A DNA stretch of 64,000 nucleotides from Candidatus Altiarchaeales archaeon (GTDB lineage Archaea > Altiarchaeota > Altiarchaeia > IMC4 > QMZM01), in assembly GCA_963749405.1 (NCBI GenBank), contig CAVVMY010000013.1, forward strand, positions 1 to 64,000, written 5' to 3'. The notes below the pieces were generated by a model. The model made no database searches, had not been told where the DNA came from, and saw nothing but the letters and a program-made list of their open reading frames with translations. This document shows positions 1-21,215 of the stretch, one piece after another. Both the position numbers and the translations under genes were made by a program. Positions within the stretch are counted from its first letter, which is position 1; every line of letters begins with the position of its first letter.

Positions 1-3002
<3,002 letters not shown>

Positions 3003-3003
3003 G

Positions 3004-4823
3004 TTACACCACGTCCTGTAATTTCAGTCTTGGGGCGATGCCCATGCTCTTCATCTCGTCCAGCAGGAGCTTGAACGCGTAACTCATCTCGACCGAGTAG
3101 ATGTCGGTCTCGTTGCCGCAGGCAAGGCAGCGGGTCATGTTGCGCTTGCGGTCGAGCATGGCGACCATGCCGCAGTGGGCGCAGACATATTCGTTCACCT
3201 TGTCCGATTCATCGAGCAGGCGTTCCTTGAGTGCCATGGCGGCGCCGTGGCCGATCATGACATCCCGCTCCATCTCACCGAACCGGAGACCGCCTTCACG
3301 GGCACGGCCTTCGGTCGGCTGGCGGGTCAGGACCTGCACCGGTCCGCGGGACCGGGCGTGCATCTTGGACGAGACCATGTGGTAGAGTTTCTGGTAGTAG
3401 ATCACGCCGATGTAGACATCGGCCTTGAAGACTTTGCCGGTGATGCCGTCATACATGACCTCCCGGCCGTTGTGGGAGAAACCGAGTTTCTTTAAGGATG
3501 CACGGATATCCGCCTCGCTCTCGCCGCCGAATGCGGTGCCGTTGATGCGCCGGCCTTCGAGGGCGCCGACCTTGCCGCCGATCATCTCGAGCATGTGCCC
3601 GATGGTCATACGGCTCGGGATCGCATGGGGGTTGATGACGAGGTCGGGGGTGAGGCCGCTCTCGGTGAAGGGCATGTCTTCCTGGTGGGCGATGAGGCCG
3701 ACGACACCCTTCTGCCCGTGCCGGGACGCGAACTTGTCGCCGACTTCCGGGCACGCGGAGGTCGCGGGTCCGGACTTTCACGAGGCGGGAACTGTTCTCG
3801 CCCTCGGTGATGATGACCGTGTCGACAATGCCGTGCTCGTTGCTGCGCATCGTGACGGAGGTGTCGCGGCGCTTCTCGACCGCAATCAGTTCACCGGACG
3901 GTTCCTCGAGGAACCGCGGCGGGGAGGTCTTGCCGATCAGCACATCCTTCTCTGCGACAACGGTCTCGGGGTTGATCACGCCGTCTTCGTCAAGGTTCTT
4001 GTAGGACTCGGCACCGTGGGCACCGGCAACGTCCTCTTCGGGGACTTCGATCCGGTCGATCTGGCCGCCGGGATACCGGCGCTCTTCGCCTTCGTAGGTC
4101 CTGAAGAAGTGGGAACGGCCGAGGCCGCGCTCGATCGAGGCCTTGTTGAAGATGAGCGCATCTTCAATATTGTAGCCTTCGTACGAGAGGATGGCGACGA
4201 CGAAGTTCTGGCCTGCAGGCCGGTCGTCGGATCCGATCAGTTCCGAGGTCTGGGTGTGGGTGAGCGGTTTCTGCACGTAGTGGAGCAGGTGGCCGCGGGT
4301 GTCGGGGCGGAGCTTCATGTTCGCCGCGCCGAAACCGAGCGCCTGCTTGACCATGCCTGCGCCCATCGTGACACGCGGACTCGCATTGTGCTCGGGGAAC
4401 GGGACGTGTGCCGCACCGATACCGAGGATCAGGGAGGGGTCGATCTCGAGGTGGGTGTGGTCGGGGGTCGCGTTCTCGGGAAGTCCATGGCGATGAGGAG
4501 GTCTTCCTCCTCTTCTGCATCGATGAACTCGATCATGCCGCGCTGGACAAAGGAGGAGATATCGATCTCCTTCTTCGCGAGCTTGCTAGAGGTCCTCGTC
4601 GGTGATCAGGGGCTCGCCGTTTTTCAGGACGATGAGGGGGCGGCGCGCACGGCCGCGGTCGGTCAGGATCACGACATCGCCGTTGTATTCCTTGTGGGAG
4701 ACGTTCACTTCCGGCGAGATCGCTCCCTGCCGGCGCATGCTGCGGATATTGGCGACCAGTGCCTTCGGGTCGTCGACAAGGCCGATGAGGGCACCGTCAA
4801 CAAATACGCGTGACTTTCTTCAT
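3004..4823 (-). CDS. rpoB1: RNA polymerase subunit B' (C-terminal half of split RpoB), with several frameshifts (at start codon homopolymer, ~4366-4800, ~3700-3800)
   Basis: C-terminal ORF 3004..3675 (…[51 protein letters not shown]) and ORF 3449..4366 are RpoB' segments. Another frame at ~4600-4800 gives the B' N-terminus [40 protein letters not shown]. The ATG overlaps the B'' stop (ATGA) at 4821-4825. Confidence 0.85.
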
Positions 4824-5350
4824 CAGACCTCACCCCGGATGTGCTCGACACCAAGGTTATGCAGGATGCGCATGATCTCTTCCTCGTCATCGACACCCTT
4901 GCTGATCTCCACCATCTGGGCAAAGTTCTTGACAAGGCCGCAATTCGGCCCTTCGGGAGTCTCGCTCGGGCAGATCCGGCCCCACTGGGTCGGGTGCAGG
5001 TCACGGGCCTCGAAATGGGGCTGTGAGCGCGAGAGCGGGGAGATCACGCGGCGGAGGTGCGAGAGCACGGCCATGTGGTCGACCCGGTCGAGGAGCTGCG
5101 AGACACCGGTCCTCCCGCCCACCCAGTTGCCGGTAGCAAGCGGGTGGAGCAGGCGTTCGGTGAGCACGTCGGCACGCACTGCGGTCGCGATCGAGAGATC
5201 GCGGTGGCGCATGCTGGCGCGCTCGAGCTGGTACTTGATATCACGGGTGAGCCGGTTGAGCGAGATACGGAAGAGGTCCTCCATCAGGTCGCCCGCAAGT
5301 TTCAGCCTCTTGTTCGAGTAGTGGTCCTTGTCATCGATCCTGCGCCGGCG
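4823..5350 (-). CDS. rpoB2: RNA polymerase subunit B'' C-terminal fragment, 5'-truncated at a sequence breakpoint near 5350
   Basis: ORF 4823..5284 (…GRICPSETPEGPNCGLVKNFAQMVEISKGVDDEEEIMRILHNLGVEHIRGEV). In-frame upstream sequence RRRRIDDKDHYSNKRLKLAGDLMEDLF matches the B'' DDRDHYGNKRLKLAGDL motif and ends at an in-frame stop at ~5351. No B''-like sequence lies beyond that. Confidence 0.8.
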   Translation of the reverse strand, partial: RRRRIDDKDHYSNKRLKLAGDLMEDLFRISLNRLTRDIKYQLERASMRHRDLSIATAVRADVLTERLLHPLATGNWVGGRTGVSQLLDRVDHMAVLSHLRRVISPLSRSQPHFEARDLHPTQWGRICPSETPEGPNCGLVKNFAQMVEISKGVDDEEEIMRILHNLGVEHIRGEV

Positions 5351-5415
5351 TCATAAGCGAACTCGACTCGCAGACAGGGAATGCCCAAGCAGGCTCAACA
5401 AGCGACCTGACGGCG

Positions 5416-6474
5416 TTGAAGACGGTCTTCCAGGACAACGGAATCACTCTCTCAGACTATGCCCGCGTAGAAAAAGGCAGCGGCAAATGGTCGGTCATCG
5501 ACGGGGACAGAAATTACGACATCTACGCAGACGACAAAGGCGGACTAAACGTAATAAACATGGGCTTTGCTTCAGTCTCACTGGCAGAGGACGACTTCAA
5601 AAACGGCCTGCTACAGGTAAAGACCTTCTTCAAAGACCTGCTGATACCCATGTCACCCAATGTAGTAGAAAACAAATCAGCAGCAGACCCGGTCTGTTAC
5701 ACCATGAATATCACATTCAGGAGGCCGTCAATACTATCTGTGGAGGTGTCCCCGAGCGGGTACACGATACCTGCAGGAACACGGGTCACTGCCACCTCTA
5801 AACTCGCACTCTATGACGGAACGCCCCTGCCCAACGAGAAAATATATGTAGACTTGTCAGGGACAAATATATGGGACCTCTCGCCCCAGGGAGTGTACAA
5901 GGACTACATGTTCTCCTACGAGGAGCTAAGCAGCAGCACAGAGCAGCAGGCAAGGCTCAGAGATTATCTTATCAGTCTGGGATATCCAGACATCGCCCAG
6001 GAATTGGACGGAGCTCAATACTCTGCAGACGGCGCAGACAAGATAGAGATAACTACATCAGGTGTTGACCCGACGCTTGAAGCAGTAGACGGCGTATCCC
6101 ACCTCAAGCTCGACAATGGCCAGGACATCATAGTCGGAGTAACCGAAAACTACAACGGCAAACTACTGGTATACGAATCAGAGGAACAGAAAAGCCTCGC
6201 ATATGCGATAACGGACGCAAGCGGCATCGCCAAATACTCATTTATACCTACGGGCAGCACCTCAGTGGGCAATTCCTATCCTGGAGGAAACATATCGTCG
6301 CCTACCCAGGCCAGCGTAGGGATACACACTGTTAGCGTCAAGTCGCCTCTTTTCTCAGGGGAGTTCCTGCTCCTGGCGCTGATACTCGTATTCGGGGTGT
6401 TCTCCTACAAATACTTCGGAAGCAGGAAACTTGACTTCTATTCATGGTGGAGGGACTTCAGAGGCAGAAAATGA
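5416..6474 (+). CDS. Surface/exported protein with C-terminal transmembrane anchor and basic tail (possibly 5'-truncated by the breakpoint)
   Basis: 352-aa ORF ends GEFLLLALILVFGVFSYKYFGSRKLDFYSWWRDFRGRK, a TM plus basic tail of the archaeal C-terminal anchor type. No N-terminal signal peptide is visible and the frame stays open upstream into the rpoB'' remnant. Its stop overlaps the next gene's start (ATGA at 6471-6474). Confidence 0.5.
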   Translation: MKTVFQDNGITLSDYARVEKGSGKWSVIDGDRNYDIYADDKGGLNVINMGFASVSLAEDDFKNGLLQVKTFFKDLLIPMSPNVVENKSAADPVCYTMNITFRRPSILSVEVSPSGYTIPAGTRVTATSKLALYDGTPLPNEKIYVDLSGTNIWDLSPQGVYKDYMFSYEELSSSTEQQARLRDYLISLGYPDIAQELDGAQYSADGADKIEITTSGVDPTLEAVDGVSHLKLDNGQDIIVGVTENYNGKLLVYESEEQKSLAYAITDASGIAKYSFIPTGSTSVGNSYPGGNISSPTQASVGIHTVSVKSPLFSGEFLLLALILVFGVFSYKYFGSRKLDFYSWWRDFRGRK

Positions 6475-7808
6475 AAAACAAAATAATAACATTCCTGGTA
6501 ATAGCATTATTCTTCGCACCCTACATGCCAATACCAACGGTCGCAGCCGCGGACGCGGGAGAGCATGGAAGCACGAACCCCCTGAGCTATTATAACTACC
6601 TGAACAAGGACTGGAACGATTTCAGCGAATTCATGACTGCGGAAAACGCGGAGCATGCAAGACTCATATTGTATCTGCTCGTGCTTGGAATGTATACCTG
6701 GAACGTAACCTCAGACATCCTGCTAAACCTGCAGAACTATGTGCTCCTGAATCCCTCGCCTCTGGAGCCTTCGGTCCTGAACGTGATGAACTTTTTTATT
6801 TTCAACCTGCAGATAGCCTACATACTGGCCATCACAGCAACCGCATTCTACATAATATTCGCATCAACGCACCCCAAGAAACGCGCAAGAGCCAAGGGCA
6901 TGCTGGGAAGACTCATAATCGGAATGCTCCTCGTAAGCATATCCCCCTACCTCATCAATATATTCTTTAATTTCTCCTCAGGGCTCACGGCAACCATACT
7001 GGCCCAGACAGACAGCTCAGTCGCAGCCACGGTCTACACAGACCTGCTATGGAAAACATACTGGCCCAGCGTAGTAATAATAATGGCTCCGATGATAGGA
7101 CACTCGCTGGAATACAACACCCACCATGCGATAGAGCACGGAGTAATGCCCAACCTGGAAACACAATACGCAAAAGAACTCCAGATGGGCACCCCAAGCG
7201 AGCAAAGAGACCTTGCAGTAGAAGACCTGCTGGCCCAGGGGAATCCCGAGGCGATAATATCCGATACGGCAGACCAGATGATGAAAGACCAGCAGAGCCT
7301 CATTAAGAGTAATGCCGAGACAATGGCTCAGTCAACCGTGTGGGGGAAACTTGAGGGTGTACTGGATAGCGGACTTATCAAAATCGAGCCCAAACCTGAG
7401 CAGACCTTTGCATTTCTCATGGCCGAGATAGCGATGATATTTGCCTTGTACGGCTTCCTTGCACTGCGCTTCCTCATGCTCATGATATGGACCATACTGT
7501 TCCCGCTGAGCATATTCCTATCCACCTTCGAGCTCACAAAAGGCGTAGGCAGGAACATGATAGAGCAGACAGTATTCTGGACGATACTGCAGATATTCTA
7601 CGCCGTGAGCATAGACACCATAGCCGTAGGATTCATGATCCTGCCTTCGGGATTCAATTATTTCGGCATTGGCTTGCAGTTCGGGGGATTTGAGGTGTTC
7701 TTCGTCAGTTTCTTTTCCATAGCTGCCGCACTGCTGCTGATGCTGACTCCGATTTTGATGCTCATGCTGTCTCAGAGGTTGACGCAGATGGATTTGAATA
7801 TGGGTTAA
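6471..7808 (+). CDS. Polytopic membrane protein, paralog 1 of 5 (signal peptide, N-terminal ectodomain, ~5-6 TM)
   Basis: MKNKIITFLVIALFFAPYMPIPTVAAADAG signal peptide. Shares motifs with the next four ORFs: IAYILAITATAFYIIFASTHPKKRARAKGMLGRLIIGMLLVSISP and WTILFPLSIFLSTFELTKGVGRNMIEQTVFWTILQIFYAV. Confidence 0.75.
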   Translation: MKNKIITFLVIALFFAPYMPIPTVAAADAGEHGSTNPLSYYNYLNKDWNDFSEFMTAENAEHARLILYLLVLGMYTWNVTSDILLNLQNYVLLNPSPLEPSVLNVMNFFIFNLQIAYILAITATAFYIIFASTHPKKRARAKGMLGRLIIGMLLVSISPYLINIFFNFSSGLTATILAQTDSSVAATVYTDLLWKTYWPSVVIIMAPMIGHSLEYNTHHAIEHGVMPNLETQYAKELQMGTPSEQRDLAVEDLLAQGNPEAIISDTADQMMKDQQSLIKSNAETMAQSTVWGKLEGVLDSGLIKIEPKPEQTFAFLMAEIAMIFALYGFLALRFLMLMIWTILFPLSIFLSTFELTKGVGRNMIEQTVFWTILQIFYAVSIDTIAVGFMILPSGFNYFGIGLQFGGFEVFFVSFFSIAAALLLMLTPILMLMLSQRLTQMDLNMG

Positions 7809-7827
7809 GAGGCATAGACACAAAAAT

Positions 7828-9021
7828 ATGTCAAACAAGAAGATAGTAACCGGGTTTTTGGTATTGGTTGTAGTCTCCTGCACGTTTAGTGCCTATGCTG
7901 CGGAAGAGACAGGGGGTGGAAATATTCTTAGCGGTGTTTTTTCAACCCCGTCTGCGGAAGAGACCTTTTGGTTTGTTAAGAGGAGTTTATATGCCTTCAC
8001 ATCCCTTGACTACAGCAAGGAGGATATGGGGTTCATCGTGAATAATCTGTCAGACCTCATACTGCTGAACCCGGACGCGCAGGGGTCTGAGGTGCAGAAC
8101 GGCCTTGGATTTATCCTGGGGCTTATACAGCCGCTTTATGTCTTATCGATAGCTGCCACCGCCTTTTATCTGATATTCGTGACGGGCTCTCCTTCGGGAA
8201 GGGCGAAGGCTAAGTCTCTTATGAAAGACCTGGTGGTCGGGATGATAATCATATCTCTTTCATCCCTCCTACTGGAAGCACTTCTTAATTTCTCAGCCAC
8301 GGCAACAGATGCGGTTTTAAAACAGACTGACATCTCCGTGGTAACGGATAACCTGCAGATAGTATTCGGCTCTCCGAGTGATAAGTCGGTAACGGACGTA
8401 GCAGTCAACTCCTTGCTGAGCGAGTCATCCATGGGCTTATTGGGCGACTCAACTGCTATGCCGGATTATTTAATGTCCCATTCATGCACCCTGTGCCTTA
8501 TGCATTTGATGGCGACATTTGTTGAAATCGAATTGGGATACTATACCTTCCTTCCGTTCATGCTGATGATATGGGGGCTGGGGGTATACTTTTTCCTGCG
8601 CTTCGCCATGGTGACTCTGTGGCTTATCCTGTTCCCTCTCTCCATACTCCTATACTCTTTTGAGACTACGAAAAGCGTAGGCAGGAACATGCTTGAGCAG
8701 ACGATAATGTGGATATTCATACAGGTATTCAACGCAGTCATCGTGGTGGCAATAGCTCTATGCATAATACAGAGCAAACCCGGTTACATGACCGTTCCGG
8801 CTCTTCCTCAATGGGTATCACAGCCTCTGGCCTCTGGCCTGGTCCAGGCCGTGATGGGGGCAATACCAGTGAGCGCTGTTGGCCCGGCACAGGATGTCAC
8901 TACTCTGATTGCCGGCAAGCTCTCGATGCCGTTGGTAGAGTTCATACCCTTCGTAGGCTGCTTTGTGATGCTTATAGCACCCTTATTCATTATGAGGCTG
9001 TTCAAAGGATTCCTGCCCTGA
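7828..9021 (+). CDS. Polytopic membrane protein, paralog 2 of 5
   Basis: MSNKKIVTGFLVLVVVSCTFSAYAAEE signal peptide. Motifs LYVLSIAATAFYLIFVTGSPSGRAKAKSLMKDLVVGMIIISLSS and WLILFPLSILLYSFETTKSVGRNMLEQTIMWIFIQVFNAV. Confidence 0.75.
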   Translation: MSNKKIVTGFLVLVVVSCTFSAYAAEETGGGNILSGVFSTPSAEETFWFVKRSLYAFTSLDYSKEDMGFIVNNLSDLILLNPDAQGSEVQNGLGFILGLIQPLYVLSIAATAFYLIFVTGSPSGRAKAKSLMKDLVVGMIIISLSSLLLEALLNFSATATDAVLKQTDISVVTDNLQIVFGSPSDKSVTDVAVNSLLSESSMGLLGDSTAMPDYLMSHSCTLCLMHLMATFVEIELGYYTFLPFMLMIWGLGVYFFLRFAMVTLWLILFPLSILLYSFETTKSVGRNMLEQTIMWIFIQVFNAVIVVAIALCIIQSKPGYMTVPALPQWVSQPLASGLVQAVMGAIPVSAVGPAQDVTTLIAGKLSMPLVEFIPFVGCFVMLIAPLFIMRLFKGFLP

Positions 9022-9022
9022 A

Positions 9023-10348
9023 ATGAAAAACAAAAAAATATTCATATTGATGGCCGCAGTCGCGCTAATGATGCTAGCATCAGCCCTGGCAGCGGAAGCC
9101 CAGGATACCTCCGGGGGAACCGGCAGCGGAGGAACACCAGCATTATCTGCGCCTTCAGAAACGCCGGCATTACCCCCCGGCCCAAAACCCCTGGAGCTTC
9201 CACCGGGAGAAAGTCTCCCACAACTCCCATCAGGAGAAAGTTTTCCGCAACTCCCCTCAGGGGAAAAACCGGCTCTTCCGCCGGGCAGCCCACCCGGCTG
9301 GGAAGACCCAATCGCACAAGCGGCTGAAGGAGCTGCCGAAGCAACTGCAAAATATTTCGTCGTCGACGTCGCAGTAAGGCTGATATACCAATACAGCGTA
9401 ATGTATCCCTGGATGCTTACATACGGAGAATCCTTCTCCAACAACTACGAAAAAGCAATACTTGCAAATCCGTCGCTCCTGGACCCCTCATCCGAAGGAT
9501 ACAACCCCCTGATAACAAATGCCATCGCATTCTCCGTAAGAATCATGCTGCCCTTCTACGTCATGGCCATAGTCCTCACAGGCGCTTACATGATATTCAT
9601 TTCCAACTCCCCTGAAGCCCGGGGAGATGCAAAAAACCTCCTTAAAAGGCTAATCATCTCAATGGTCGCATTCTCCATGTCACCCCTCATAGTCGAAACA
9701 ATGCTTGCAACATCCCAAAACATATCATCAGCAATCATAAGCCAAGCCGATCCGACAAACGTAAAGATGGTCCTGGACGGAGGCATATGGGGCTCCTATA
9801 TTATATTCTGCAAACTTGGGATTACAGATCTGGAGATAGCAATCGCTTACTGGACTTCTCTATTTGTCATGGCCTGGCTCCCCTATATGGTGATAGGGAT
9901 GAGGCATATAATGATCACCTTGTTCTGCATGGCATTTCCCGTAGGAATAGCCCTCTACTCCTTTGTCTACTTAAGGAACATAGGCAGAAAGATACTCGAA
10001 CAGACAATAGTCTGGATATACCTGCAGGCATTTATTGCGGTAGCAATAGTCGTCATATCCCTTGGCGCAAGCTACTATTACATACTCCCCCCGGACCAGA
10101 ACCCCAAGCTCACCAACTTCCCAATACCCGCAGTAATGGACAAAGGCGCTCTATCACTTATACAGATGCTCGGCATAAACATCGGAGCAAGCCAGACACC
10201 TGTAACAATACCCGGCTTAGGGGTCGCACCCCCGATGGTATTCGGCATCACCTCAATCCTTTCATACGCAATCGGCGCCATGGCCTACGGACTACTCGTG
10301 GCAGTTCCGTTCATGATGCTGCGGCTGCTGAATAATTTCCTGCCTTAA
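9023..10348 (+). CDS. Polytopic membrane protein, paralog 3 of 5 (with Pro-rich repeat insert after the signal peptide)
   Basis: MKNKKIFILMAAVALMMLASALAAEA signal peptide, then PPGPKPLELPPGESLPQLPSGESFPQLPSGEKPALPPGSPPG. Motifs FYVMAIVLTGAYMIFISNSPEARGDAKNLLKRLIISMVAFSMSP and FCMAFPVGIALYSFVYLRNIGRKILEQTIVWIYLQAFIAV. Start lies 2 nt after the previous stop. Confidence 0.75.
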   Translation: MKNKKIFILMAAVALMMLASALAAEAQDTSGGTGSGGTPALSAPSETPALPPGPKPLELPPGESLPQLPSGESFPQLPSGEKPALPPGSPPGWEDPIAQAAEGAAEATAKYFVVDVAVRLIYQYSVMYPWMLTYGESFSNNYEKAILANPSLLDPSSEGYNPLITNAIAFSVRIMLPFYVMAIVLTGAYMIFISNSPEARGDAKNLLKRLIISMVAFSMSPLIVETMLATSQNISSAIISQADPTNVKMVLDGGIWGSYIIFCKLGITDLEIAIAYWTSLFVMAWLPYMVIGMRHIMITLFCMAFPVGIALYSFVYLRNIGRKILEQTIVWIYLQAFIAVAIVVISLGASYYYILPPDQNPKLTNFPIPAVMDKGALSLIQMLGINIGASQTPVTIPGLGVAPPMVFGITSILSYAIGAMAYGLLVAVPFMMLRLLNNFLP

Positions 10349-10354
10349 GAAAGA

Positions 10355-11410
10355 ATGGAAAAACAAAAACAAAAAATCATAGCATTAATGATAATCGGAA
10401 TGCTGATACTCCTGCCCTGGGTATACGCAGAAGAAGACGACGAGGACACGGAAGACGAGGGAGGGTCATTATCACAGATAGCCGGCGCAGAAACAGTCAA
10501 GCTGTTAGCCAAGGCATGGATAGACGGCGCAGCAGGAGACCTATACGACGTCCTGGCAAAGATCACAGGCCAGCTGCGGGAATACATAACGGCAAATCCG
10601 CCCATGAACGACATAAAGCGGATACAGGCCTTCTTCATAGGACTCATGCAGCCCTTCTTCATACTTGGAATAGTTCTCAGTTCCGCATATCTCCTGCTGT
10701 ACTCGGAATCCCCGAGGGGGAGAGCCAAGTCCAAAGCAGCCCTTGTAAGACTCATATACGCACTCATACTTGTCTCCATATCCCCCCTGATAATATGGCT
10801 GCTTCTGACCTTTTCTTCGAGCCTGACAAATGCGATACTGGACAACACCGACCTCTATTACGCAGGGCAGGTAATATATGTCGGAGCCCATTATATGTTC
10901 AATATGTTCTTCTGGCTAACCATGATACATCGTACCGGAGGAGTAGAACTACTACTGCTCTGGGAAACATTCATGCTAATCATAAACTTTGTAATAGCCA
11001 TGAGATACCTCCTCGTAATACTCTGGTGCGTCATGTTCCCTGTAAGCCTTCTCTTGTTCTCTTTCACACCTACAAAAACCATAGGAAAAAAATTCCTACA
11101 CCAGACATTCCTATGGACATTCGTACAAGTAGGCTGGGCCCTCGCAATCATGCTCATATGCGCATCAGTCAAAGGAATGGACGCAGTAATGCCCGGCTAC
11201 CCCATCGGAAAGATCGGCATCACCTGCATATTCCTGTTCCTTGCAACCCCAAGGGTGGTATTCGGGCTGATGGACTGGCTGAGCCTCGGCGTAGAGGTAG
11301 TGGAGATAGTAAACGCAGCGCCGCTGTCGATGGGCGCGCTCACATTGGACGAGATGAAGGTCGAAAGAGAGGTCATCCTGGAAGAGCCCTCGCTGGAGGG
11401 CGTATTATAA
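10355..11410 (+). CDS. Polytopic membrane protein, paralog 4 of 5
   Basis: MEKQKQKIIALMIIGMLILLPWVYAEEDDEDTEDEGG signal peptide. Motifs FFILGIVLSSAYLLLYSESPRGRAKSKAALVRLIYALILVSISP and WCVMFPVSLLLFSFTPTKTIGKKFLHQTFLWTFVQVGWAL. Confidence 0.75.
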   Translation: MEKQKQKIIALMIIGMLILLPWVYAEEDDEDTEDEGGSLSQIAGAETVKLLAKAWIDGAAGDLYDVLAKITGQLREYITANPPMNDIKRIQAFFIGLMQPFFILGIVLSSAYLLLYSESPRGRAKSKAALVRLIYALILVSISPLIIWLLLTFSSSLTNAILDNTDLYYAGQVIYVGAHYMFNMFFWLTMIHRTGGVELLLLWETFMLIINFVIAMRYLLVILWCVMFPVSLLLFSFTPTKTIGKKFLHQTFLWTFVQVGWALAIMLICASVKGMDAVMPGYPIGKIGITCIFLFLATPRVVFGLMDWLSLGVEVVEIVNAAPLSMGALTLDEMKVEREVILEEPSLEGVL

Positions 11411-11414
11411 GACC

Positions 11415-12677
11415 ATGAAAAAAACAATAAAATACTCCGGCCTAAAGGCCGGAGTATTGCTCTCAAAAGCGGCAGAGATAGGTATGGATAAACCCCTGCC
11501 TCAAAGGCAGGGGTATTCTGCCGCTTTTGTGATAAACAAAAAAACAAGAAAAAAAATCCTGATATCAGCATCAGTAATCCTCGTCATAGCATTGATCATC
11601 AATACTTCGGCGATAATCCCCGCAGCCTTGGCCTTGGCTGCCGAGTACTTCACCGAAAGATACCAAGCGGCATTGCCCGGCGCTGTAGCGATGGAAGCAG
11701 GCCACTGGCTTTCTGCTGCAACTATCCGCATAATATTTGCGTACTTCGTATACTGGGGGTTCTTTTCAAAGTACGCGGACTTATGCAACCATTTGCCTGA
11801 GCTGATACTAATGAATCCCAAGATTATGATAGCAGATGATCGCGGCAACTACTACGGAAATCCGCCCATGGAAGAGCTTGTCGATTCGTTCATCCGCATA
11901 ACCCAGCCGTTTTACGTCTTTGCCATAATGCTGGTCGCATTCTACCTCCTGTTCGTCTCAGGTTCGCCTCTGGGACGGGCCAGGGCAAAGTCCAGCCTGA
12001 TAAGACTGGTCCTCTCAATGGGCGTTATAGTGCTAACCATACCCATCATCCAGCTCTGCCTGGACTTCTCGGAAGTGCTTTCAGGGAGCATCCTGAACAT
12101 GCAGGACATAGCACCCGGCATAGCAGTCCTCCAGGAAGCAGTCTACGGGCTATGGCAGAACTATTTCACCGCAATCGTCTTCAACTACTGGAACTCGGTA
12201 TATCTGCTGATGTTTTCCGCAGTGATGTTCTTCCTGCCATTCGCAATAATTGCGCTGAGATATTTTATGATAATATACTTCACCGCACTCTTCCCGCTGA
12301 CAGTGCTATTCTACGCCTTCTACTTCACCAGAAACATGGGCGGACACATATTCAGAGAAACATTCCGATGGATATTCATCCAGCCGCTCTGGGCCATGAT
12401 ACTCGTGGCAATATCTGCGGCCGCAGTCTCGATGCCCTTCATAAACACCGACGCCACAGCACGCATGGGCTTCGGCCTTGCAGGATTCATAGTGCTTACA
12501 ATAGCGCCCCTCATAGTGGTAAAAGTCATGGACTGGCTCGCAATGCTCATGATAATGCTGACGGCAATAGAATTCCCGGGCATGCACGGCGTAGTAGGCA
12601 TGATAGACGAATTACAAGTAGAAGGTCCGGAAACACAGGAAATAACCCCGCCGCCGCCCATAAGGCCCAGGGCCTAA
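11415..12677 (+). CDS. Polytopic membrane protein, paralog 5 of 5 (true start uncertain; possibly GTG ~11529 downstream of a structured element)
   Basis: Motifs FYVFAIMLVAFYLLFVSGSPLGRARAKSSLIRLVLSMGVIVLTIP and FTALFPLTVLFYAFYFTRNMGGHIFRETFRWIFIQPLWAM. The first ~38 codons of the ORF overlap nested hairpins that recur in a non-coding context at 59028-59174. Confidence 0.7.
   Translation: MKKTIKYSGLKAGVLLSKAAEIGMDKPLPQRQGYSAAFVINKKTRKKILISASVILVIALIINTSAIIPAALALAAEYFTERYQAALPGAVAMEAGHWLSAATIRIIFAYFVYWGFFSKYADLCNHLPELILMNPKIMIADDRGNYYGNPPMEELVDSFIRITQPFYVFAIMLVAFYLLFVSGSPLGRARAKSSLIRLVLSMGVIVLTIPIIQLCLDFSEVLSGSILNMQDIAPGIAVLQEAVYGLWQNYFTAIVFNYWNSVYLLMFSAVMFFLPFAIIALRYFMIIYFTALFPLTVLFYAFYFTRNMGGHIFRETFRWIFIQPLWAMILVAISAAAVSMPFINTDATARMGFGLAGFIVLTIAPLIVVKVMDWLAMLMIMLTAIEFPGMHGVVGMIDELQVEGPETQEITPPPPIRPRA
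11432..11528 (+). ncRNA. Structured intergenic element, copy A (terminal hairpin ATACTCCGGC-loop-GCCGGAGTAT plus outer stem AAAAGCGGCAGA…TCTGCCGCTTTT enclosing inner hairpin CCCCTGCC-TCAAA-GGCAGGGG)
   Basis: Read directly. Same architecture and near-identical first hairpin recur at 59028-59174. Confidence 0.45.
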
Positions 12678-12735
12678 AGTATAATAAATGCAGTATATAT
12701 TCCAGAATATAGTATAATTATGTAAATTAAAAGCA

Positions 12736-14025
12736 ATGGCAGCAATACCCATACAGGAAGAATCCCAGGCCACAATCGAACGCGATAGAGAACAGGAAAA
12801 ATTAATAAGAGTGCAGGGAGGATTCTCCTTAGACCCTCAGACCCTGGCAGTGATAATAGACGCAGCCCTGATAATCTTCTTCCTATTCTTCTACCCACCC
12901 AACCAGCCAGTCTCTTTCCCCTACGGAATCAGCATCCAGCCAAACGTCCTCATACCCCTGCTGACAGTGCTTCTGATAGGCCTGATAATAAACAAATCCA
13001 TAGTCAACTTCATGGAATACGAACGAGGCGTCGTATTCAAATGGGGCAAATTCAACAGGATAGCAGGCCCAGGCTGGGAAATAATATTCCCCCTGATGGA
13101 GCGATACATCAAAGTCGACCTGCGGCTGGAAGTAATAAGCCTGCCGCCCCACGAAGTAGTCACAAAAGACAAGGTACGCTTCCTCGTATCCCCTGAGATA
13201 TTCATGTACGTCTCCAACCCAAAAGACGCCATACTAAACGTGCAGAACTACAAGAAAGCAACAATACAATACGTAACAAGCGCCCTCACCCACACACTGG
13301 GCGACTCGACCTCAGACTACATAGTCGCGCACATGAACGAAATATCCGACACCCTCGGACACTCAGTAGAACACATAACAAACACGCCCGGAAAAGAATG
13401 GGGCATCGTCGTACCCAGAGTCAAACTGGCATTCATCCGCTTCCCGGACGAGGTACAGTCCGCAATGCACAAAAAAGTAGCAAGCGAACAACTGAAACTC
13501 GCAGCCCATGAAAAAGCCGAGGCAATAAAAGTGGAAATAGACGCAATAAGAGAAGCAGGAGGAAAACTCACAGACCCGGCCCTGACATACATGTACCTCG
13601 AATCCCTCGACAAAGTAGCCAAAGGAAAAGCCACAAAAATAGTCCTACCCCTCGAAATATCCAAGATGGCAGAAACCATCACCAGAAGAACCAGCGGAGC
13701 AATAGGAAGCGGAAAACAGGAATTAAACCTGCCACCCGACGTAGTCCAAAGATATGCAGAGATCGCAGACAACTACGACAAAAGGCTCAAGGACATAGAA
13801 GGCAAACTCACAGCCTCCGAAGGAAGAGAGGAGCGCAACCGGATGCTAAGAGACGAATACAGGAGAAAGGAGTTGGAAGACAAAACCGGAAAACCAGAAG
13901 ACTCCGCGGAAAAAGAAGGACCGGAAAATACGGAAAAACCGCAGACAAGCCGGAAAGAAGACAGCGAATTAAAAGAATACAAAGACCGGATACGCGAGAT
14001 AAAGAAGAGAGTAGGCATAGACTAA
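12736..14025 (+). CDS. SPFH/band-7 (stomatin/prohibitin/HflK-C-like) membrane protein with long charged coiled-coil C-terminal tail
   Basis: N-terminal TM segments, then FKWGKFNRIAGPGWEIIFPLMERYIKVDLRLEVISLPPHEVVTKDKVRFLVSPEIFMYVSNPKDAILNVQNYKKATIQYVTSALTHTLGD (SPFH core). E/K/R-rich tail to 429 aa. Confidence 0.8.
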   Translation: MAAIPIQEESQATIERDREQEKLIRVQGGFSLDPQTLAVIIDAALIIFFLFFYPPNQPVSFPYGISIQPNVLIPLLTVLLIGLIINKSIVNFMEYERGVVFKWGKFNRIAGPGWEIIFPLMERYIKVDLRLEVISLPPHEVVTKDKVRFLVSPEIFMYVSNPKDAILNVQNYKKATIQYVTSALTHTLGDSTSDYIVAHMNEISDTLGHSVEHITNTPGKEWGIVVPRVKLAFIRFPDEVQSAMHKKVASEQLKLAAHEKAEAIKVEIDAIREAGGKLTDPALTYMYLESLDKVAKGKATKIVLPLEISKMAETITRRTSGAIGSGKQELNLPPDVVQRYAEIADNYDKRLKDIEGKLTASEGREERNRMLRDEYRRKELEDKTGKPEDSAEKEGPENTEKPQTSRKEDSELKEYKDRIREIKKRVGID

Positions 14026-14030
14026 AAAAA

Positions 14031-14300
14031 ATGGCGGAGAAAATAGACACAGACAACATATACATAGACGAGGAGGAGAACTTTGTCGCAGTGAAGGTGA
14101 ATACGAAACTGTACAGGATACATGCCATAATGAATGCTGCGGATGAGTTCCTGGAGGAATCAAATTTCATAGTGGACGGCGACCCTGACAAGGAGATAAT
14201 AGTCAAATTCGTCCCCAAGAGGCGGTTCAGCCGCCAGCAGCTCGCAGACCTGGCCCATAAGTTCTGCACCCTCCTTGTCACATTCAGCTCAACCCGGTGA
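14031..14300 (+). CDS. Small hypothetical protein (89 aa, acidic)
   Basis: ORF MAEKIDTDNIYIDEEENFVAVKVNTKLYRIHAIMNAADEFLEE..., tightly packed between the SPFH and bPH-like genes. No recognisable motif. Confidence 0.35.
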   Translation: MAEKIDTDNIYIDEEENFVAVKVNTKLYRIHAIMNAADEFLEESNFIVDGDPDKEIIVKFVPKRRFSRQQLADLAHKFCTLLVTFSSTR

Positions 14301-14922
14301 AAAAATGACTTTCCAAGAAGAGATAAAAAAGCTTGACTACAAGGGAATAGGACTCCTGATGGCAATCGCGCTGGTCCTGGGAGTGATATACGGAGCCTTC
14401 TTCATACACAACATGTTTTTTGGGATAGTTGCGATGGTCATAGCAGTATTCGGATGCTATTACGTCATGTCGTCGTTCTTTGAAGAAGAAAAACCAGTCA
14501 GCCTGGAGCCAGGAGAGAAAATGATCCTGCGCACATTGGACCGCGCCTATCTGCTGCTGCCGAAAAAAGGAGGATTTCTCACCACGCAATCGCAGAGAGA
14601 CCTTTCCGTGTACCTTACCAACAGGAGGATATTTGCCAAGAAATCTTCCGGGGAAACGGTATTCGAAAAACCTATAACTGACCTGTCGGGAGTTACGTCT
14701 GAGAAGAGGCTCATGACAAGTTATCTGCGCCTGAGGTATTATTCTGAAGGAAAAGAAAAAGACGTCCTGCTATTCGTCGGGGACAGCGGCATCTGGATAA
14801 AGAGGCTGGGCGAACTGGGCGTGAGAGAAAAAGACGAATTCGAAACAGACAAGGCGGAAAAAGACAAATTCGTGGAAGACTCAAAGAAATTGAAAAACAA
14901 GATAGACCGAAAAACAAAATAG
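14296..14922 (+). CDS. Membrane protein with two TM helices and a bacterial-PH-like (DUF304/YdbT-like) domain; start probably MTFQEE at 14296
   Basis: GIGLLMAIALVLGVIYGAFFIHNMFFGIVAMVIAVFGCYYV TM hairpin, then a ~120-aa beta-rich domain and a K/E tail. ORF 14275 is in the same frame. Confidence 0.45.
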   Translation, partial: GEKMTFQEEIKKLDYKGIGLLMAIALVLGVIYGAFFIHNMFFGIVAMVIAVFGCYYVMSSFFEEEKPVSLEPGEKMILRTLDRAYLLLPKKGGFLTTQSQRDLSVYLTNRRIFAKKSSGETVFEKPITDLSGVTSEKRLMTSYLRLRYYSEGKEKDVLLFVGDSGIWIKRLGELGVREKDEFETDKAEKDKFVEDSKKLKNKIDRKTK

Positions 14923-14930
14923 GAGAGAAT

Positions 14931-15644
14931 ATGACAGAAAACAAGGTTACCCTAAATAGAAAATTCTTCGCCTTGCTGTCGATACTGCTGGCATCCGCAG
15001 CAGTCATGGAAACACATGCGGACAGTTACTACGTATGCATGAGCGGAAAATGGACCCTTGCGGCGATGAGTCAATACTGCGCATCCGACTGCTACGACCT
15101 GGACACCGCAACCTGCTCGGCGCAGCCTGCCCCTACAAGCAAGATTAGTTTAACGTCCGACTGCGGCGCAGACTCAAGAGCATTAGGCGGAAAATGCGTA
15201 GTCGTAAAAGCCGGTGAATCGGCTCCGCAAGATACGACAGCGTCGCCTGCGGCCTTTTCCACAACTACGACAACTGCATCCTCAAGTTCCCCGTCAGCTC
15301 AATCCGGCGCAGAAGAAGCAGGCTTTCAGACAGCGAATTGCCAATGCACCTGCGGCGCCAAGACAATAAATGCGACAGGAATCTACAAGCCAGGATCCTT
15401 CCTGGGCATAACCAACCCCCTTGACACGATGACTGCTGCGACGAAGTGTCAGGAGCAGTGTGCGAGGACATGCGGCGGATTCACCACCTGCGCGAATCAG
15501 ACGGACGCTGATTGCGATACCTGCTGCACGAATTATTGCGCAACCAGCTACAGCAGTGGCTCGGGGACGACGTCATCTGGGAGTGGTACTGAGAACCATG
15601 CAATACCTCATGCAAGAGCACCTGTAAATTCCGGGGAACCGTGA
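14931..15644 (+). CDS. Secreted Cys-rich, Ser/Thr-rich protein
   Basis: Signal peptide FFALLSILLASAAVMETHA. About 20 Cys in patterned spacing (CQCTCGAKT, CQEQCARTCGGFTTCANQTDADCDTCCTNYC). STTTTTASSSS linker. Confidence 0.55.
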   Translation: MTENKVTLNRKFFALLSILLASAAVMETHADSYYVCMSGKWTLAAMSQYCASDCYDLDTATCSAQPAPTSKISLTSDCGADSRALGGKCVVVKAGESAPQDTTASPAAFSTTTTTASSSSPSAQSGAEEAGFQTANCQCTCGAKTINATGIYKPGSFLGITNPLDTMTAATKCQEQCARTCGGFTTCANQTDADCDTCCTNYCATSYSSGSGTTSSGSGTENHAIPHARAPVNSGEP

Positions 15645-15850
15645 ACGGGATAACTGACATAATCTACATGGCGGCAGGCATCCTTGGAGCGCTCATGATA
15701 GCAATACACGGTATAAGGATGGCAACCTCACAGGACCCGAATGAAAGGGACGCATCCAAAAGCAGCATAATCCATGTCATACTCGCGCTGATCATAATCG
15801 CCATGGCGGCGGCCCTTGTCAACATGTTCATAAGCATGGGCGGGGTATGA
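15641..15850 (+). CDS. Small two-TM membrane protein (69 aa), translationally coupled to the upstream gene (4-nt overlap)
   Basis: MNGITDIIYMAAGILGALMIAIHGIRMATSQDPNERDASKSSIIHVILALIIIAMAAALVNMFISMGGV: two hydrophobic helices with a short polar loop. Size and shape resemble VirB2/TrbC/CedA1-type subunits (inference only). Confidence 0.5.
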   Translation: MNGITDIIYMAAGILGALMIAIHGIRMATSQDPNERDASKSSIIHVILALIIIAMAAALVNMFISMGGV

Positions 15851-15860
15851 AACGGGCCTT

Positions 15861-17621
15861 TCAGAATTTTTTTATGTTAACGTGTCCGTCGGCGGTCAGT
15901 TTTTCAATTATGTATTCTACAGCTTCAGGCGTGAGCCTGGTCTCTTTGGCCAGTTCGTCGACTGTCTTTTTGCCGTCGACTCTTTCTATTACCTTTATTA
16001 TCTGAGGATACTTGGCATACTTTAATTTATCCAGAAGGCCGATCTTTTTCTTAAATTCTGGCACCTCTGGCCTGGGGCGCTGCTGGGGCTTCTGTGCCGC
16101 TGCTTGGGCTGCCTGGATTAGTTCCTCTTTTTTGATTACTATCTCCCGGGTATTCTGCGGCTCCTGCGGTGTCTGCTGCGTCTTTGGTTCTTCCTGCGGC
16201 GCGGCTGAATCGGGCAGAGGCTCTTTTGATTCCTGTGGCTGGGCTGCTAACTTATTTTCATCAGGCGCATTCCCAGCAGTTTCCTGCGGTGCTCCTCCTA
16301 TGCCTACAAAGTGTTTCTTTCTCTTGTCCCATCCCCAGTATACGTCGGCATTTTTATTAAGATCGCGTATCTCTGATGTGGTCTTGTCCACGAGCTCCTC
16401 GGATGATTCGTTACTGGCTTCGTTTGTGATCGGTGCCTGTTCCTCTGCTGCCGGCGATTCTGGTTCTGTGTTCGCAGGGGCTGTGGCGTTCTGCTCGGGT
16501 GCTTCTTCCTGCAACTGCGCAGGTGCGGTTGCCGGGGGGCTTTCGTTGCTTGGCTTCTGGCTGCCCTCAGACGGCGTCTCGGACTTTTTCGCTTCTTTCT
16601 TCTTTTTAAGCCTCTGGAGTGTGGCATTTGCCCTCGTTAGCCATTCATCACTAGAGGCTTTGGGCGTTTGAGCAGCAGATGACTCCTCCCTATCTAAGAT
16701 TCCCTTTTGTGTAATGCGTTGATGCGTCCGCCCAAGTATGGCATCGCGCACCTGTTCATTGAAATCCTCTGACTGCGTCTTCTCTGACGAAGCAGGCGTT
16801 TCTTCCTGCTCCTCGGTTTCCGCAGCAGGCTCCGGGGTTTCTGGCTCTGCTTCTTCCTTCTCTTTCTCTTCTGCCGCAGCCATGGGAGATTCTTCAGTTA
16901 TCCTCTCCCAGGGATCCTCGCGGAGTATCATCTCATCAAGGGATTTTTCGTCAGGGGAGTCTTCCATGCTCTTTGAAGGCTCAGCATAACTTTTCTGAGA
17001 ATCCATGCCCTCTGCTTGGGCATCGCCGGCCTGTGCAGTCTGTGCTTGCTCCTCGGAAGACGGTTTAGATTCCTTAACAGTTTCTGCAGGCTCTGGGCTG
17101 GCTGCCGGGACTTCTTTATGCTCTGACTTCTCTTCCCCCGAGACTTTATCCTCTGAGGGCTCTTCTGGGGCAGGAATATCAACGTTTACCTTGTAGGAGC
17201 GGTCCCTTAGGTCTCCTTTCAGTATCATCTCCAGATAAGGCTTCTCCCTTTCCTCGAACTGCTTCCATTTAGCTTCGAAATCCTTCCACTGTGCCTCAAG
17301 ACTGAAGAGACCTTCTTTGCGTACATCCACATCCACTCTCCCGATATCCCCAAGGGTCTTTCCAAGGTCTCTTACCAGTTCAAGAAGAGACGAGTCCTTC
17401 CCGCCCAGGTACGACTTAAAGCCTTCATCTGAAAGCTCATAGGCAACAACTTCGCCGGAGGACTCTTTTATGTAATCCAATATCCCCTGAAAAGCCTCTT
17501 CGCCGAATATCTGGGTCGACTCGGCAGGGCATTTCAGGGACGCAGCTATTATGAAATTATTCTGCAATATAAGCTCCGCCTCATAAGATCTCTGCTCACA
17601 GGACATCTTCATCCGGACCAC
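15861..17621 (-). CDS. Highly acidic low-complexity protein with folded N-terminal domain and C-terminal winged-helix-like domain
   Basis: 586 aa. N-terminal ~110 aa structured (…GEVVAYELSDEGFKSYLGG…). Long E/P/S/A/Q-rich acidic middle. C-terminus KKIGLLDKLKYAKYPQIIKVIERVDGKKTVDELAKETRLTPEAVEYIIEKLTADGHVNIKKF is HTH-like. Confidence 0.5.
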   Translation of the reverse strand: MVRMKMSCEQRSYEAELILQNNFIIAASLKCPAESTQIFGEEAFQGILDYIKESSGEVVAYELSDEGFKSYLGGKDSSLLELVRDLGKTLGDIGRVDVDVRKEGLFSLEAQWKDFEAKWKQFEEREKPYLEMILKGDLRDRSYKVNVDIPAPEEPSEDKVSGEEKSEHKEVPAASPEPAETVKESKPSSEEQAQTAQAGDAQAEGMDSQKSYAEPSKSMEDSPDEKSLDEMILREDPWERITEESPMAAAEEKEKEEAEPETPEPAAETEEQEETPASSEKTQSEDFNEQVRDAILGRTHQRITQKGILDREESSAAQTPKASSDEWLTRANATLQRLKKKKEAKKSETPSEGSQKPSNESPPATAPAQLQEEAPEQNATAPANTEPESPAAEEQAPITNEASNESSEELVDKTTSEIRDLNKNADVYWGWDKRKKHFVGIGGAPQETAGNAPDENKLAAQPQESKEPLPDSAAPQEEPKTQQTPQEPQNTREIVIKKEELIQAAQAAAQKPQQRPRPEVPEFKKKIGLLDKLKYAKYPQIIKVIERVDGKKTVDELAKETRLTPEAVEYIIEKLTADGHVNIKKF

Positions 17622-20570: not shown

Positions 20571-21215
20571 ATGAAAACAGTCCTCCAAGTATCCCTCAAC
20601 TCCCTAAACCTGCAGGAAGCACTAAGCATAGCAGAAAAAGCCTCAAACGAGGGAATCACATGGATAGAAGCCGCAAGCACCCTCATAAAAGCAGCAGGAC
20701 TCGCCTCCGTAACAGAAATAAGAAAAAGATACCCCAACGCAACAATAACCGCGGACATGAAGATGATCCGCTCGCCTGAAGAAGTAGCCGCAGCCGCAGA
20801 TGCCGGGGCGAACATAGTGATGTTCTATTCCGAAAGCGACGACGACCTGATACGCAGGTACGTTGAGAAAGCCAAGGAAAAAAACATCGAATTAATGGCT
20901 GACATATACGCCAGCGTTTTCCCTGCAAGAGACGCAAAACGATTCCAAGACCTCGGCGTAAACTACCTCTTCGTAAGGTCCCGGGACCTCAAAGCAGTCG
21001 CATCCGCAGTACAGATACCCGTGGCAGTCCCCATAGGAAGAGATGCGGAAGCTGCGAAAAGAGCTTGTCGAAAACGGGGCAAAGATACTAAACATAAGCG
21101 ATTTCCCAGACACGGAAAGAATAAACGGCATATCAGAAAAAATACCGGAACTGCGGGAAAGCCAAAAACAACCAACCGCGGCCAAGCCGGAAACCATAGC
21201 TGCTACATCCAATAA
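20571..21215 (+). CDS. HPS/KGPDC/OMPDC-family TIM-barrel protein (3-hexulose-6-phosphate synthase-like), divergent; 3' end uncertain (~21100-21215)
   Basis: MKTVLQVSLNSLNLQEALSIAEKAS…ITADMKMIRS…GANIVMFY… aligns to HPS MKLQVALDLVNLEEAL…ADLKTMDAG. Conserved Asp positions read N/S/R here. The ORF tail (RKRGKDTKHKRF…) looks like out-of-frame read-through overlapping the next gene. Confidence 0.5.
   Translation: MKTVLQVSLNSLNLQEALSIAEKASNEGITWIEAASTLIKAAGLASVTEIRKRYPNATITADMKMIRSPEEVAAAADAGANIVMFYSESDDDLIRRYVEKAKEKNIELMADIYASVFPARDAKRFQDLGVNYLFVRSRDLKAVASAVQIPVAVPIGRDAEAAKRACRKRGKDTKHKRFPRHGKNKRHIRKNTGTAGKPKTTNRGQAGNHSCYIQ

Follow-up and report, generated by a model that had tools for sequence, protein, structure and literature searches.

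The Ced system of Sulfolobales and the Ted system of Thermoproteales are archaeal, chromosomal, relaxase-less derivatives of type IV secretion systems (T4SSs), in which a VirB2-like pilin is combined with a VirB4-like ATPase and a VirB6-like protein whose N-terminus is homologous to the pilin (PMC9905601). Here, these systems are compared with a block of genes lying between positions 5,349 and 15,850 of a 64,000-nucleotide stretch of DNA (hereafter, the window) from a Candidatus Altiarchaeales archaeon (GenBank assembly GCA_963749405.1, contig CAVVMY010000013.1, positions 1 to 64,000 of the forward strand). The block is operon-like and forms an envelope module centred on five polytopic membrane proteins that are paralogues of one another, and the system to which it belongs is very probably derived from a T4SS. 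The block is likely to supply one half, the membrane platform and pilin, of a T4SS-derived apparatus that Altiarchaeota carry on the chromosome and inherit vertically, and is best read as a domesticated T4SS-like pilus or translocation platform.

Despite these shared features, Ced and Ted possess a single CedA or TedA protein, in contrast to the five fixed paralogues found here, and are without a giant surface protein, an SPFH protein or a PH-like partner. Their pilins are small and unfused, whereas altiarchaeal pilin domains are often joined to Cys-rich regions, PKD domains or enzymes. The altiarchaeal ATPase is also much nearer to the VirB4 models of monoderms and integrated conjugative elements (ICEs), with an E-value of 7.6e-96 against the CD1110 model, than to CedB, and the host phylum is a different one. 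A second point of comparison is the chromosomal T4SS of Patescibacteria (candidate phyla radiation), which shares the pilin family PF18895, PrgI/VirB3-like and TrsD-like proteins, an MPF-FATA-like VirB4 and VirB6 homologues, lacks a relaxase, carries arrays of divergent pilin genes and is conserved in an uncultivated lineage, suggesting a co-opted, non-conjugative role (PMC12102498). This system is, however, bacterial, with no fixed set of five VirB6 proteins, giant adhesin or SPFH module reported, and its VirB6 proteins are retrieved by standard VirB6 profiles, whilst the altiarchaeal family is not.

Five divergent VirB6 paralogues are also known from the rvh T4SS of Rickettsiales: Rickettsia retains five RvhB6 proteins, whose use is considered an open question, and some of these carry large extensions (PMC8035066), as do altiarchaeal relatives of 600-2,000 aa. 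In contrast to the altiarchaeal system, rvh is a complete diderm P-type T4SS that secretes effectors and includes VirB7-11 and VirD4, and Ehrlichia has four paralogues. No sequence relationship is detectable between the two families, which implies that the five-fold expansions arose independently. [quoted passage not shown]

The altiarchaeal system differs from these known ones in its fixed set of five subunits, giant protein, PH-like partner, SPFH pair, fused pilins and host phylum. An earlier note on this DNA, made without database searches, did not recognise the combination, and the system is apparently undescribed. A full-text literature search for Altiarchae* together with VirB4 or 'conjugal transfer' found no paper, although its coverage is incomplete and an earlier description elsewhere is possible; nor was a paper found with both Altiarchaeota and 'type IV secretion' in its title or abstract.

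Five paralogues with a predicted VirB6-like fold

The five membrane proteins, judged by eye in the earlier note to be divergent paralogues, are confirmed as paralogues by pairwise BLASTP, with 27-37% identity and best-segment E-values of 1e-12 to 1e-33. They have a common layout. An N-terminal hydrophobic segment is followed by a variable ectodomain, a two-helix hairpin with an invariant SPxGRAxAK loop motif, a variable loop, two or three transmembrane helices around a (V/I)GRxxLEQT motif and a C-terminal transmembrane helix. Paralogue 1 is distinguished by an insertion of ~90 aa in the loop following the pilin-like hairpin. Identity to the orthologue at the same position of a related locus, L001 (loci are referred to by such numbers where they need to be told apart), is 62% for paralogue 1, 63% for paralogue 3, 71% for paralogue 4 and 73% for paralogue 5.

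An AlphaFold2 model of paralogue 2 was obtained with a predicted local distance difference test (pLDDT) score of 75 and a predicted template modelling (pTM) score of 0.68. Two independent fold-search methods each put VirB6 first for this model, with TrwI/VirB6 chains occupying ranks 1, 2, 4, 5 and 6 of the Foldseek result. The best structural match is TrwI/VirB6 of R388 (PDB 7o3v), which shares ~5-15% sequence identity with the paralogue and differs in forming a homo-pentamer from the product of one gene. To judge from the model, the paralogue fold matches VirB6 best. The first transmembrane hairpin of the family is pilin-like. The T4SS pilin family PF18895 matches the first hairpin weakly in three of the window paralogues and in 22 of 26 family members (best 5.6e-6), and hhalign aligned the paralogue-family profile with an altiarchaeal pilin-domain profile over the loop and second helix (probability 87%, E 3.9e-6). 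The same relationship, a pilin-like N-terminal hairpin, has been reported for CedA/CedA1 and VirB6/VirB2 (PMC9905601). The Pfam TrbL model does not detect the window paralogues, and PF04610 (TrbL/VirB6) is matched by one of 36 long relatives (0.0017). An identity as ABC-2 permeases, which the earlier note had named as a competing assignment, receives no backing, as neither Pfam nor NCBIfam produced an ABC-2 or FtsX-type permease match in the five paralogues or in 62 relatives.

A VirB2-type pilin at the end of the block

The last gene of the block ends in a VirB2-type T4SS pilin hairpin. Its 69-aa C-terminal part matches PF18895 (T4SS_pilin) at 3.3e-11 and 43.5 bits (gathering threshold 26.6), PF04956 (TrbC/VirB2) at 4.7e-5 and 24.0 bits (threshold 27.9) and the NCBIfam Mbov_0395 model, a Mycoplasma-ICE pilin-like conjugal transfer protein, at 1.2e-8. 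The block had been said to contain no pilin with a class III signal; a pilin is present, of the VirB2 type and not of class III. It had been listed as a gene of its own, the stop/start overlap at 15641/15644 having been taken for a gene junction. This overlap is a frameshift near 15590 inside one gene, which may be genuine or an error of assembly. From 15593 onwards the pilin frame is open, reading EPCNTSCKSTCKFRGTVNGITD upstream of the GTG codon, matching DLCKTSCKSTCKFKGTINGITG in L001, and the Cys/Thr-rich and pilin parts form a single open reading frame (ORF) in L001 (228 aa) and L026 (220 aa); the two ORFs of the window are therefore one gene.

Elsewhere, the VirB2-type hairpin occurs in small pilins or is fused to PKD, SLT lytic transglycosylase, transglutaminase or MopE-like domains. 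Genes for hairpin-PKD fusions lie divergent from the giant surface-protein gene in L005 (1533-3509, minus strand), L012 (1033-3930, minus) and L015 (3-3476, minus); the L005 fusion also includes an SLT lytic transglycosylase domain (VirB1-like, 1e-14) and that of L012 a transglutaminase core. For an archaeon to have a lytic enzyme of the peptidoglycan type may point to a bacterial target, or to something left over from the ancestral T4SS.

Conservation and distribution of the block

Ten complete loci from related genomes are available in addition to the window (L009 being treated as L001, and L020 as L005). All eleven have exactly five paralogues, in the same order, after the giant surface protein, and one to three pilin-domain genes follow the homologue of the 215-aa PH-like protein wherever the contig reaches that far. 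In 469 of 550 comparisons, the best match of a paralogue in another locus occupies the corresponding position, which implies that the quintuplication is old and that every copy has been retained; by sequence comparison, the five positions are five orthologous groups. The earlier note would have taken its proposal as refuted had the block turned out to be a common conserved housekeeping locus in related genomes. The locus is indeed conserved in such genomes; this reveals a lineage-specific system that has become fixed, but does not make the system a known one.

The family is considerably larger than word-indexed searches suggest. Such searches gave just 19-23 proteins, whereas an exhaustive profile search recovered 467 representative family proteins, many of which measure 600-2,000 aa and have their membrane domain placed N-terminally. 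The named paralogue homologues all come from metagenome-assembled genomes (MAGs) of Altiarchaeota, Altiarchaeales or Altiarchaeia, with the exception of two distant loci that NCBI files under Euryarchaeota/Methanobacteriota: L021 and L022, from the SCGC AAA252-I15 single-cell genome (clade pMC2A384) and a 'Methanobacteriota' MAG. Each of these has two adjacent family members of 816-1,621 aa beside housekeeping genes, and may represent an ancestral or reduced form of the system. The MAG B80_G16 harbours two complete five-paralogue blocks, L011 (QMZG01000030) and L019 (QMZG01000003), reflecting either duplication of the whole system or a bin of two organisms.

Association with a VirB3/VirB4 locus

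In L014, the block is directly followed by genes for a 291-aa PrgI/TrsD-like protein and a 761-aa ATPase. The latter matches PF19044 (6e-25, above cutoff), AAA_10 (1e-13) and the NCBIfam model 'VirB4-like conjugal transfer ATPase, CD1110 family' (7.6e-96, 322 bits, cutoff 325). Its match to the CedB model (7.7e-18, 64 bits, cutoff 700) lies far below those to monoderm VirB4 models, and NCBI already labels some of these ATPases 'VirB4 family'. The PrgI/TrsD-like proteins of related loci match PF12666 PrgI (2.8e-5, 25.0 bits, cutoff 27) and TrsD (8.6e-7), and also the N-terminal part of the ICE VirB4 model Mbov_0397; no VirB3/PrgI-like gene is present in the window. ATPases of the L014 type fall into more than 100 clusters at 56-88% identity, all Altiarchaeota where named. 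They include representatives in ex4484_2 and ex4484_96, where the five-paralogue blocks lie on other contigs. The usual order of the VirB4 locus is a PMT_2 glycosyltransferase, a small pilin (107-141 aa), the VirB3-like protein, VirB4 and further pilins; the small canonical pilins next to VirB4 span 98-141 aa overall.

Two further arrangements connect the VirB4 locus with the block. In L024, two members of the paralogue family (1665 and 682 aa) lie immediately upstream of PrgI/VirB3-VirB4 and several pilin genes. In L025, the SPFH gene and a homologue of its 89-aa partner (E 1e-19), together at 12364-13810, follow VirB4 and not the paralogues. The SPFH gene and this partner move as a pair, alternating between VirB6-like and VirB4 loci. 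Taken with the conservation of the ATPase, the arrangements in L014, L024 and L025 indicate that the VirB6-like and VirB3/VirB4 blocks are parts of one system. The likeness to VirB6 and to the CedA/CedA1 pair, originally offered as architectural, has gained substance from the PF18895 and TrbC matches, the VirB6 fold match, the pilin-like hairpin and the VirB3/VirB4 genes that adjoin the block in some relatives.

Two observations accompany the VirB4 locus. In L023, L025 and L014, a gene for a PMT_2-type (dolichyl-phosphate-mannose) glycosyltransferase lies close upstream of a small pilin gene, which suggests that pilins or surface proteins are glycosylated. The genome of L025 is ex4484_2-like, and a tie between an SPFH scaffold and a T4SS-like machine is unusual.

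Relaxase, VirD4-type coupling protein and integrase genes were found neither in the window nor in the flanks of ~20 related loci inspected, and classical conjugation is unlikely since no relaxase or coupling protein was seen. This bears on the possibility that the locus is an ICE or its decaying remnant, in other words self-transferring mobile DNA and not a host system. Such an origin would fit the conjugative nature of the closest families (the CD1110-type VirB4 and the Mycoplasma ICE models for pilin and ATPase), the frameshifted pilin gene of the window and the two block copies in B80_G16. Nevertheless, it is highly improbable given the position of the block, which lies at the same chromosomal site, next to ThiL, in three genomes whose blocks include SPFH (the window, L001 and the P0017 contig), and the positional orthology of all five paralogues across many Altiarchaeota genomes. 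The high identity of the ATPase over many Altiarchaeota, a GC content of the block equal to that of its housekeeping flanks, the lack of an integrase, relaxase or coupling protein in the ~20 flanks inspected and the absence of any match of paralogue 2 among 72,556 plasmids searched with tblastn argue in the same direction.

A predicted hetero-pentameric platform

On the reading preferred here, the five non-redundant VirB6-like subunits would assemble in a 1:1:1:1:1 ratio as a hetero-pentameric ring in the cytoplasmic membrane, the counterpart of the R388 VirB6 homo-pentamer. VirB2-type hairpin proteins, which in this block carry a Cys-rich ectodomain, would be drawn in by the pilin-like hairpins of the paralogues, and a VirB3/VirB4 ATPase encoded elsewhere in the genome would lever them out of the membrane. 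Once extracted, they could be stacked into a pilus-like conduit or displayed at the surface, and the product may be a pilus with decorations or a means of surface display. The giant Cys-rich protein, anchored in the membrane, would act as an adhesin or contact factor, whilst the PH-like membrane protein, along with SPFH and its 89-aa partner, would have an accessory, organising role. The hetero-pentamer is proposed because five conserved paralogues with pilin-like hairpins fit the R388 VirB6 pentamer, and for this predicted assembly the chances appear evenly balanced; formation of a pilus is predicted with similarly even prospects. The leading putative uses are Ced/Ted-like DNA import, contact or adhesion and the delivery of envelope proteins, between which the data do not discriminate. 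With no relaxase or coupling protein seen, the likeliest use is exchange or uptake that depends on contact, in the manner of Ced and Ted, or else adhesion. DNA import, taken as a putative use by itself, is a tentative and somewhat doubtful suggestion.

A number of observations weigh against a T4SS-derived platform. No VirB4 was found in the 64-kb window, either by tblastn with the L014 VirB4 or by Pfam scans of large ORFs, and the presence of VirB4 in the genome of this organism is assumed from its relatives. The fold-match scores are modest, with a best Foldseek E-value of 0.018 and TM-scores of 0.32-0.44. The family profile gave no match to PDB sequences even at E <= 10, and a precomputed weak TrbL_3 match of an L005 paralogue was not reproduced by our own hmmscan; at the sequence level, homology to VirB6 has thin support. 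In the window the pilin gene carries a frameshift, and the pilin hairpins sit in proteins of 220-1,173 aa, sometimes in mid-chain, which is atypical of polymerising pilins; in such large proteins they may be mere membrane anchors.

Several of these points would also be expected of a lineage-specific envelope module unrelated to T4SS function, in which the paralogues would be scaffolds or permeases that anchor or export the giant protein, the VirB2-like hairpin a reusable two-helix anchor and the resemblance to VirB6 a generic helical-bundle match. The lack of a significant PDB-sequence match, the modest fold scores and the occurrence of pilin hairpins inside large multidomain surface proteins (PKD, SLT, transglutaminase) are in keeping with this, as are the many loci, a majority, without an adjacent ATPase and the NCBI name of one long relative, 'ABC transporter permease'. 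Such a module is, however, improbable in view of the first rank given to VirB6 by two independent fold-search methods and a pilin domain that exceeds the curated Pfam threshold. It is also at odds with the adjacency, in L014 and L024, of family members to VirB3/VirB4 and to genes for small pilins, and with the alternation of the SPFH pair between VirB6-like and VirB4 blocks; moreover, no member has a Pfam match to an ABC-2 or other permease.

An alternative scenario accepts the T4SS ancestry but places the function in envelope biogenesis, with hairpin-anchored proteins extracted from the cytoplasmic membrane and delivered to the cell surface or, if the clade of the window has one, to the outer membrane, and no transfer pilus formed. 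The system would then be a T4SS turned housekeeping envelope machine, in which a VirB4-driven hetero-pentameric ring of five dedicated subunits brings the hairpin fusions, along with the giant adhesin, to the surface or outer membrane and possibly takes part in the anchoring of surface appendages. In support of this scenario, the system is conserved over the Altiarchaeota loci sampled and its ATPase highly so, the hairpins are fused to many different ectodomains, the giant anchored surface protein is always first in the block and the VirB4 locus has a constant neighbour in the PMT_2 glycosyltransferase. Altiarchaeota are enclosed by two membranes (PMC4460559), and VirB4 is known to dislocate pilins (PMC9259494). 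Against it, the small canonical pilins next to VirB4 fit an ordinary pilus. Both as an account of the block and in this fuller form as an envelope machine, it is considered unlikely in comparison with a domesticated T4SS-like pilus or translocation platform.

A giant surface protein truncated at a probable chimeric join

The first gene of the block is incomplete in the window. L004, assembled independently from the same organism, matches window positions 5349-9270 with 100% identity and is unrelated upstream of 5349. Its first-gene ORF runs on upstream, measures at least 623 aa and can be aligned in full with residues 1575-2192 of the L001 orthologue, which has 2192 aa; to residues 1844-2192 of this orthologue the window fragment is 57% identical. 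Since the ORF continues upstream in L004 and the orthologues, always first in the block, measure 1,047-2,484 aa, the '352-aa surface protein' with a TTG start at 5416 is an artefact, namely the C-terminal stub of a protein of ~2,200-2,500 aa. The GC content falls from 0.63 to 0.52 at the join 5348/5349 and is 0.62 over window positions 1-5348, compared with 0.49 for the remainder. Positions 1-5348 are foreign sequence, produced by a chimeric contig or a rearrangement at 5348/5349; as the join is absent from L004, the public contig is probably chimeric. Both the first and the last gene of the block are wrongly annotated. Window positions 1-5348 contain minus-strand ORFs for archaeal RNA polymerase subunits, apparently fragmented or frameshifted.

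The full giant protein of L001 has 3.2% Cys, an N-terminal signal peptide and a C-terminal transmembrane anchor, and the window fragment retains the C-terminal transmembrane helix and a basic tail. No Pfam or NCBIfam family was matched by the fragment. The C-terminus had been likened to PGF/PEF-CTERM archaeosortase anchors, a proposal that was rejected: an NCBIfam scan of 5416-6474 found no family at E <= 1, the PGF/PEF-CTERM sorting-signal models included, and the fragment ends in SGEF, a transmembrane helix and a tail of ~23 aa, the motif being GEF rather than PGF or PEF. A role as the subunit of the hamus, or grappling hook, was also rejected. The published hamus protein is soluble, of 97 kDa, with an S-layer-like N-terminus and no transmembrane helix predicted beyond the N-terminal signal peptide (PMC4460559), in contrast to a giant of 1,047-2,484 aa with a C-terminal transmembrane helix, and no link between the two was found.

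Accessory genes and a possible regulator

The identification of the SPFH/band-7 protein in the earlier note is upheld by a match of 88.3 bits to PF01145 Band_7 (gathering threshold 23.6); the protein has two N-terminal hydrophobic segments. Whether SPFH constantly accompanies the paralogue family had also been raised, and it does not: the gene is an accessory part, present in some lineages only. Together with its 89-aa partner it follows the paralogues in the window, L001/L009 and L026, whilst in L011 an SPFH homologue lies on the opposite strand. The 89-aa protein is 86% identical to its L001 counterpart and has a weak, sub-cutoff HxsD-like match (8e-4).

The 215-aa protein, 73% identical to that of L001, has orthologues in L001, L005, L011, L012, L014, L015, L017, L018, L020 and L026, and a homologue follows the paralogues in each sufficiently long locus except L019 and L008. 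The window protein has two transmembrane helices. The description of this protein as bPH-like finds weak support in a bPH_3 match in three of eight orthologues (0.0018), along with GRAM (0.036) and weak Vps36 matches; a profile search against the PDB returned noise only, and a single-sequence AlphaFold model (pLDDT 59) was too poor for use.

The convergent gene beyond the pilin gene encodes a winged helix-turn-helix (wHTH) protein with orthologues at the same position in L001 (HTH_24 1e-5, DUF2226) and the P0017 contig, but not in L026 or L005. It is confined to the closest subclade and is a possible regulator, not a core part. The wHTH and ThiL neighbours are shared by the window, L001 and the P0017 contig, placing the block at the same chromosomal position. 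Downstream genes in L026 differ, which sets the right-hand boundary of the block at the pilin gene. In L001 (20007-20726, minus strand) and the P0017 contig, a KaiC-like ATPase gene (PF06745, 7e-21) lies between the wHTH/DUF2226 gene and ThiL; it is not present in the window, where the wHTH and ThiL genes are only 336 nt apart. The idea that the ATPase of the system lies inside the window was rejected on the negative tblastn and Pfam scans given above; the KaiC-like ATPase near the L001 block is on the other strand and absent from the window.

Layout of the block and other features of the window

The ORFs between ~5350 and 15850 are all on the plus strand (Table 1). Paralogue 1 starts within gene 1, and the junctions at 9021/9023, 10348/10355, 11410/11415, 14025/14031 and 14922/14931 leave gaps of 1, 6, 4, 5 and 8 nt, respectively; wider gaps occur at 7808/7828 (19 nt) and, before the SPFH gene, at 12677/12736 (58 nt). 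The single strand and tight junctions of the operon-like block described at first are borne out, but its count of eleven genes is not: with the join at 5348/5349 and the frameshift near 15590 taken into account, the block has ten genes, one truncated and one frameshifted.

Table 1. Genes of the altiarchaeal block and its convergent neighbour (window coordinates)
Feature	Coordinates	Strand	Evidence
Giant Cys-rich surface protein, 3' fragment (last ~375 codons)	5349..6474	+	L004 identity; L001 alignment
VirB6-like paralogue 1, start 6444 or 6471	6444..7808	+	BLASTP against other paralogues; L001 position-1 orthologue
VirB6-like paralogue 2 (the structurally modelled one)	7828..9021	+	Paralogue family; structure model
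VirB6-like paralogue 3, Pro-rich N-terminal ectodomain	9023..10348	+	PF18895 0.012 at residues 174-225
VirB6-like paralogue 4	10355..11410	+	PF18895 0.099 at residues 88-147
VirB6-like paralogue 5, longer N-terminus, first transmembrane helix ~residues 44-77	11415..12677	+	Paralogue family
SPFH/Band-7 (HflK-like) membrane scaffold, E/K-rich tail	12736..14025	+	Pfam Band_7 8e-25; HflK 1e-13
89-aa acidic soluble protein, fixed partner of SPFH gene	14031..14300	+	Conserved in L001, L025
215-aa protein, two transmembrane helices and PH-like domain; alternative start TTG 14275	14305..14922	+	Weak bPH_3; orthologues
Signal peptide, Cys/Thr-rich ectodomain and C-terminal VirB2-type T4SS pilin hairpin, frameshifted	14931..15850	+	PF18895
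Acidic low-complexity protein, C-terminal wHTH; convergent neighbour	15861..17621	-	HTH_24, MarR_2 ~2e-3

Three features lie elsewhere in the window. At 21043-24546, an ORF of ~1,167 aa encodes an extremely E/K-rich coiled coil without a Pfam match, with an AT skew of 0.5-0.7; its 5' end overlaps the preceding gene, which resembles that of orotidine monophosphate (OMP) decarboxylase, and translation probably begins further downstream. Two direct repeats (31551-31850 and 34496-34795), at least 300 nt long, 100% identical and 2,945 nt apart, bracket a repetitive Ser/Thr-rich ORF without a Pfam match (33426-34427, minus strand); they could stem from a mobile element, from duplication or from faulty assembly. 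Positions 29633-31549 encode a serpin of 638 aa (Pfam Serpin 5e-130) with an N-terminal extension of ~270 aa; serpins are uncommon in archaea.

Implications

The system described here would add, beside Ced and Ted, another archaeal lineage with domesticated conjugation-type machinery, in this case phylum-wide. As Altiarchaeota are uncultivable and have an unusual double membrane, genomic inference is the main route to their cell biology. To our knowledge, the machinery of outer-membrane biogenesis is not known for these two-membraned archaea. Were the system to be an envelope machine, it would provide the first natural case of a VirB6 pentamer split into five specialised subunits, and would account for the parallel expansion to five in Rickettsia as well.

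The fusion of VirB2 hairpins to large ectodomains and enzymes suggests that the pilin module can serve to target or anchor proteins, and would broaden the view of what T4SS-like machines handle. In the only complete T4SS structure that we know of, VirB6 is a pentamer. The five fixed altiarchaeal paralogues, each forming its own orthologous group, make the idea of a hetero-pentamer directly testable, and they bear on the question of why five RvhB6 paralogues are retained in Rickettsia.

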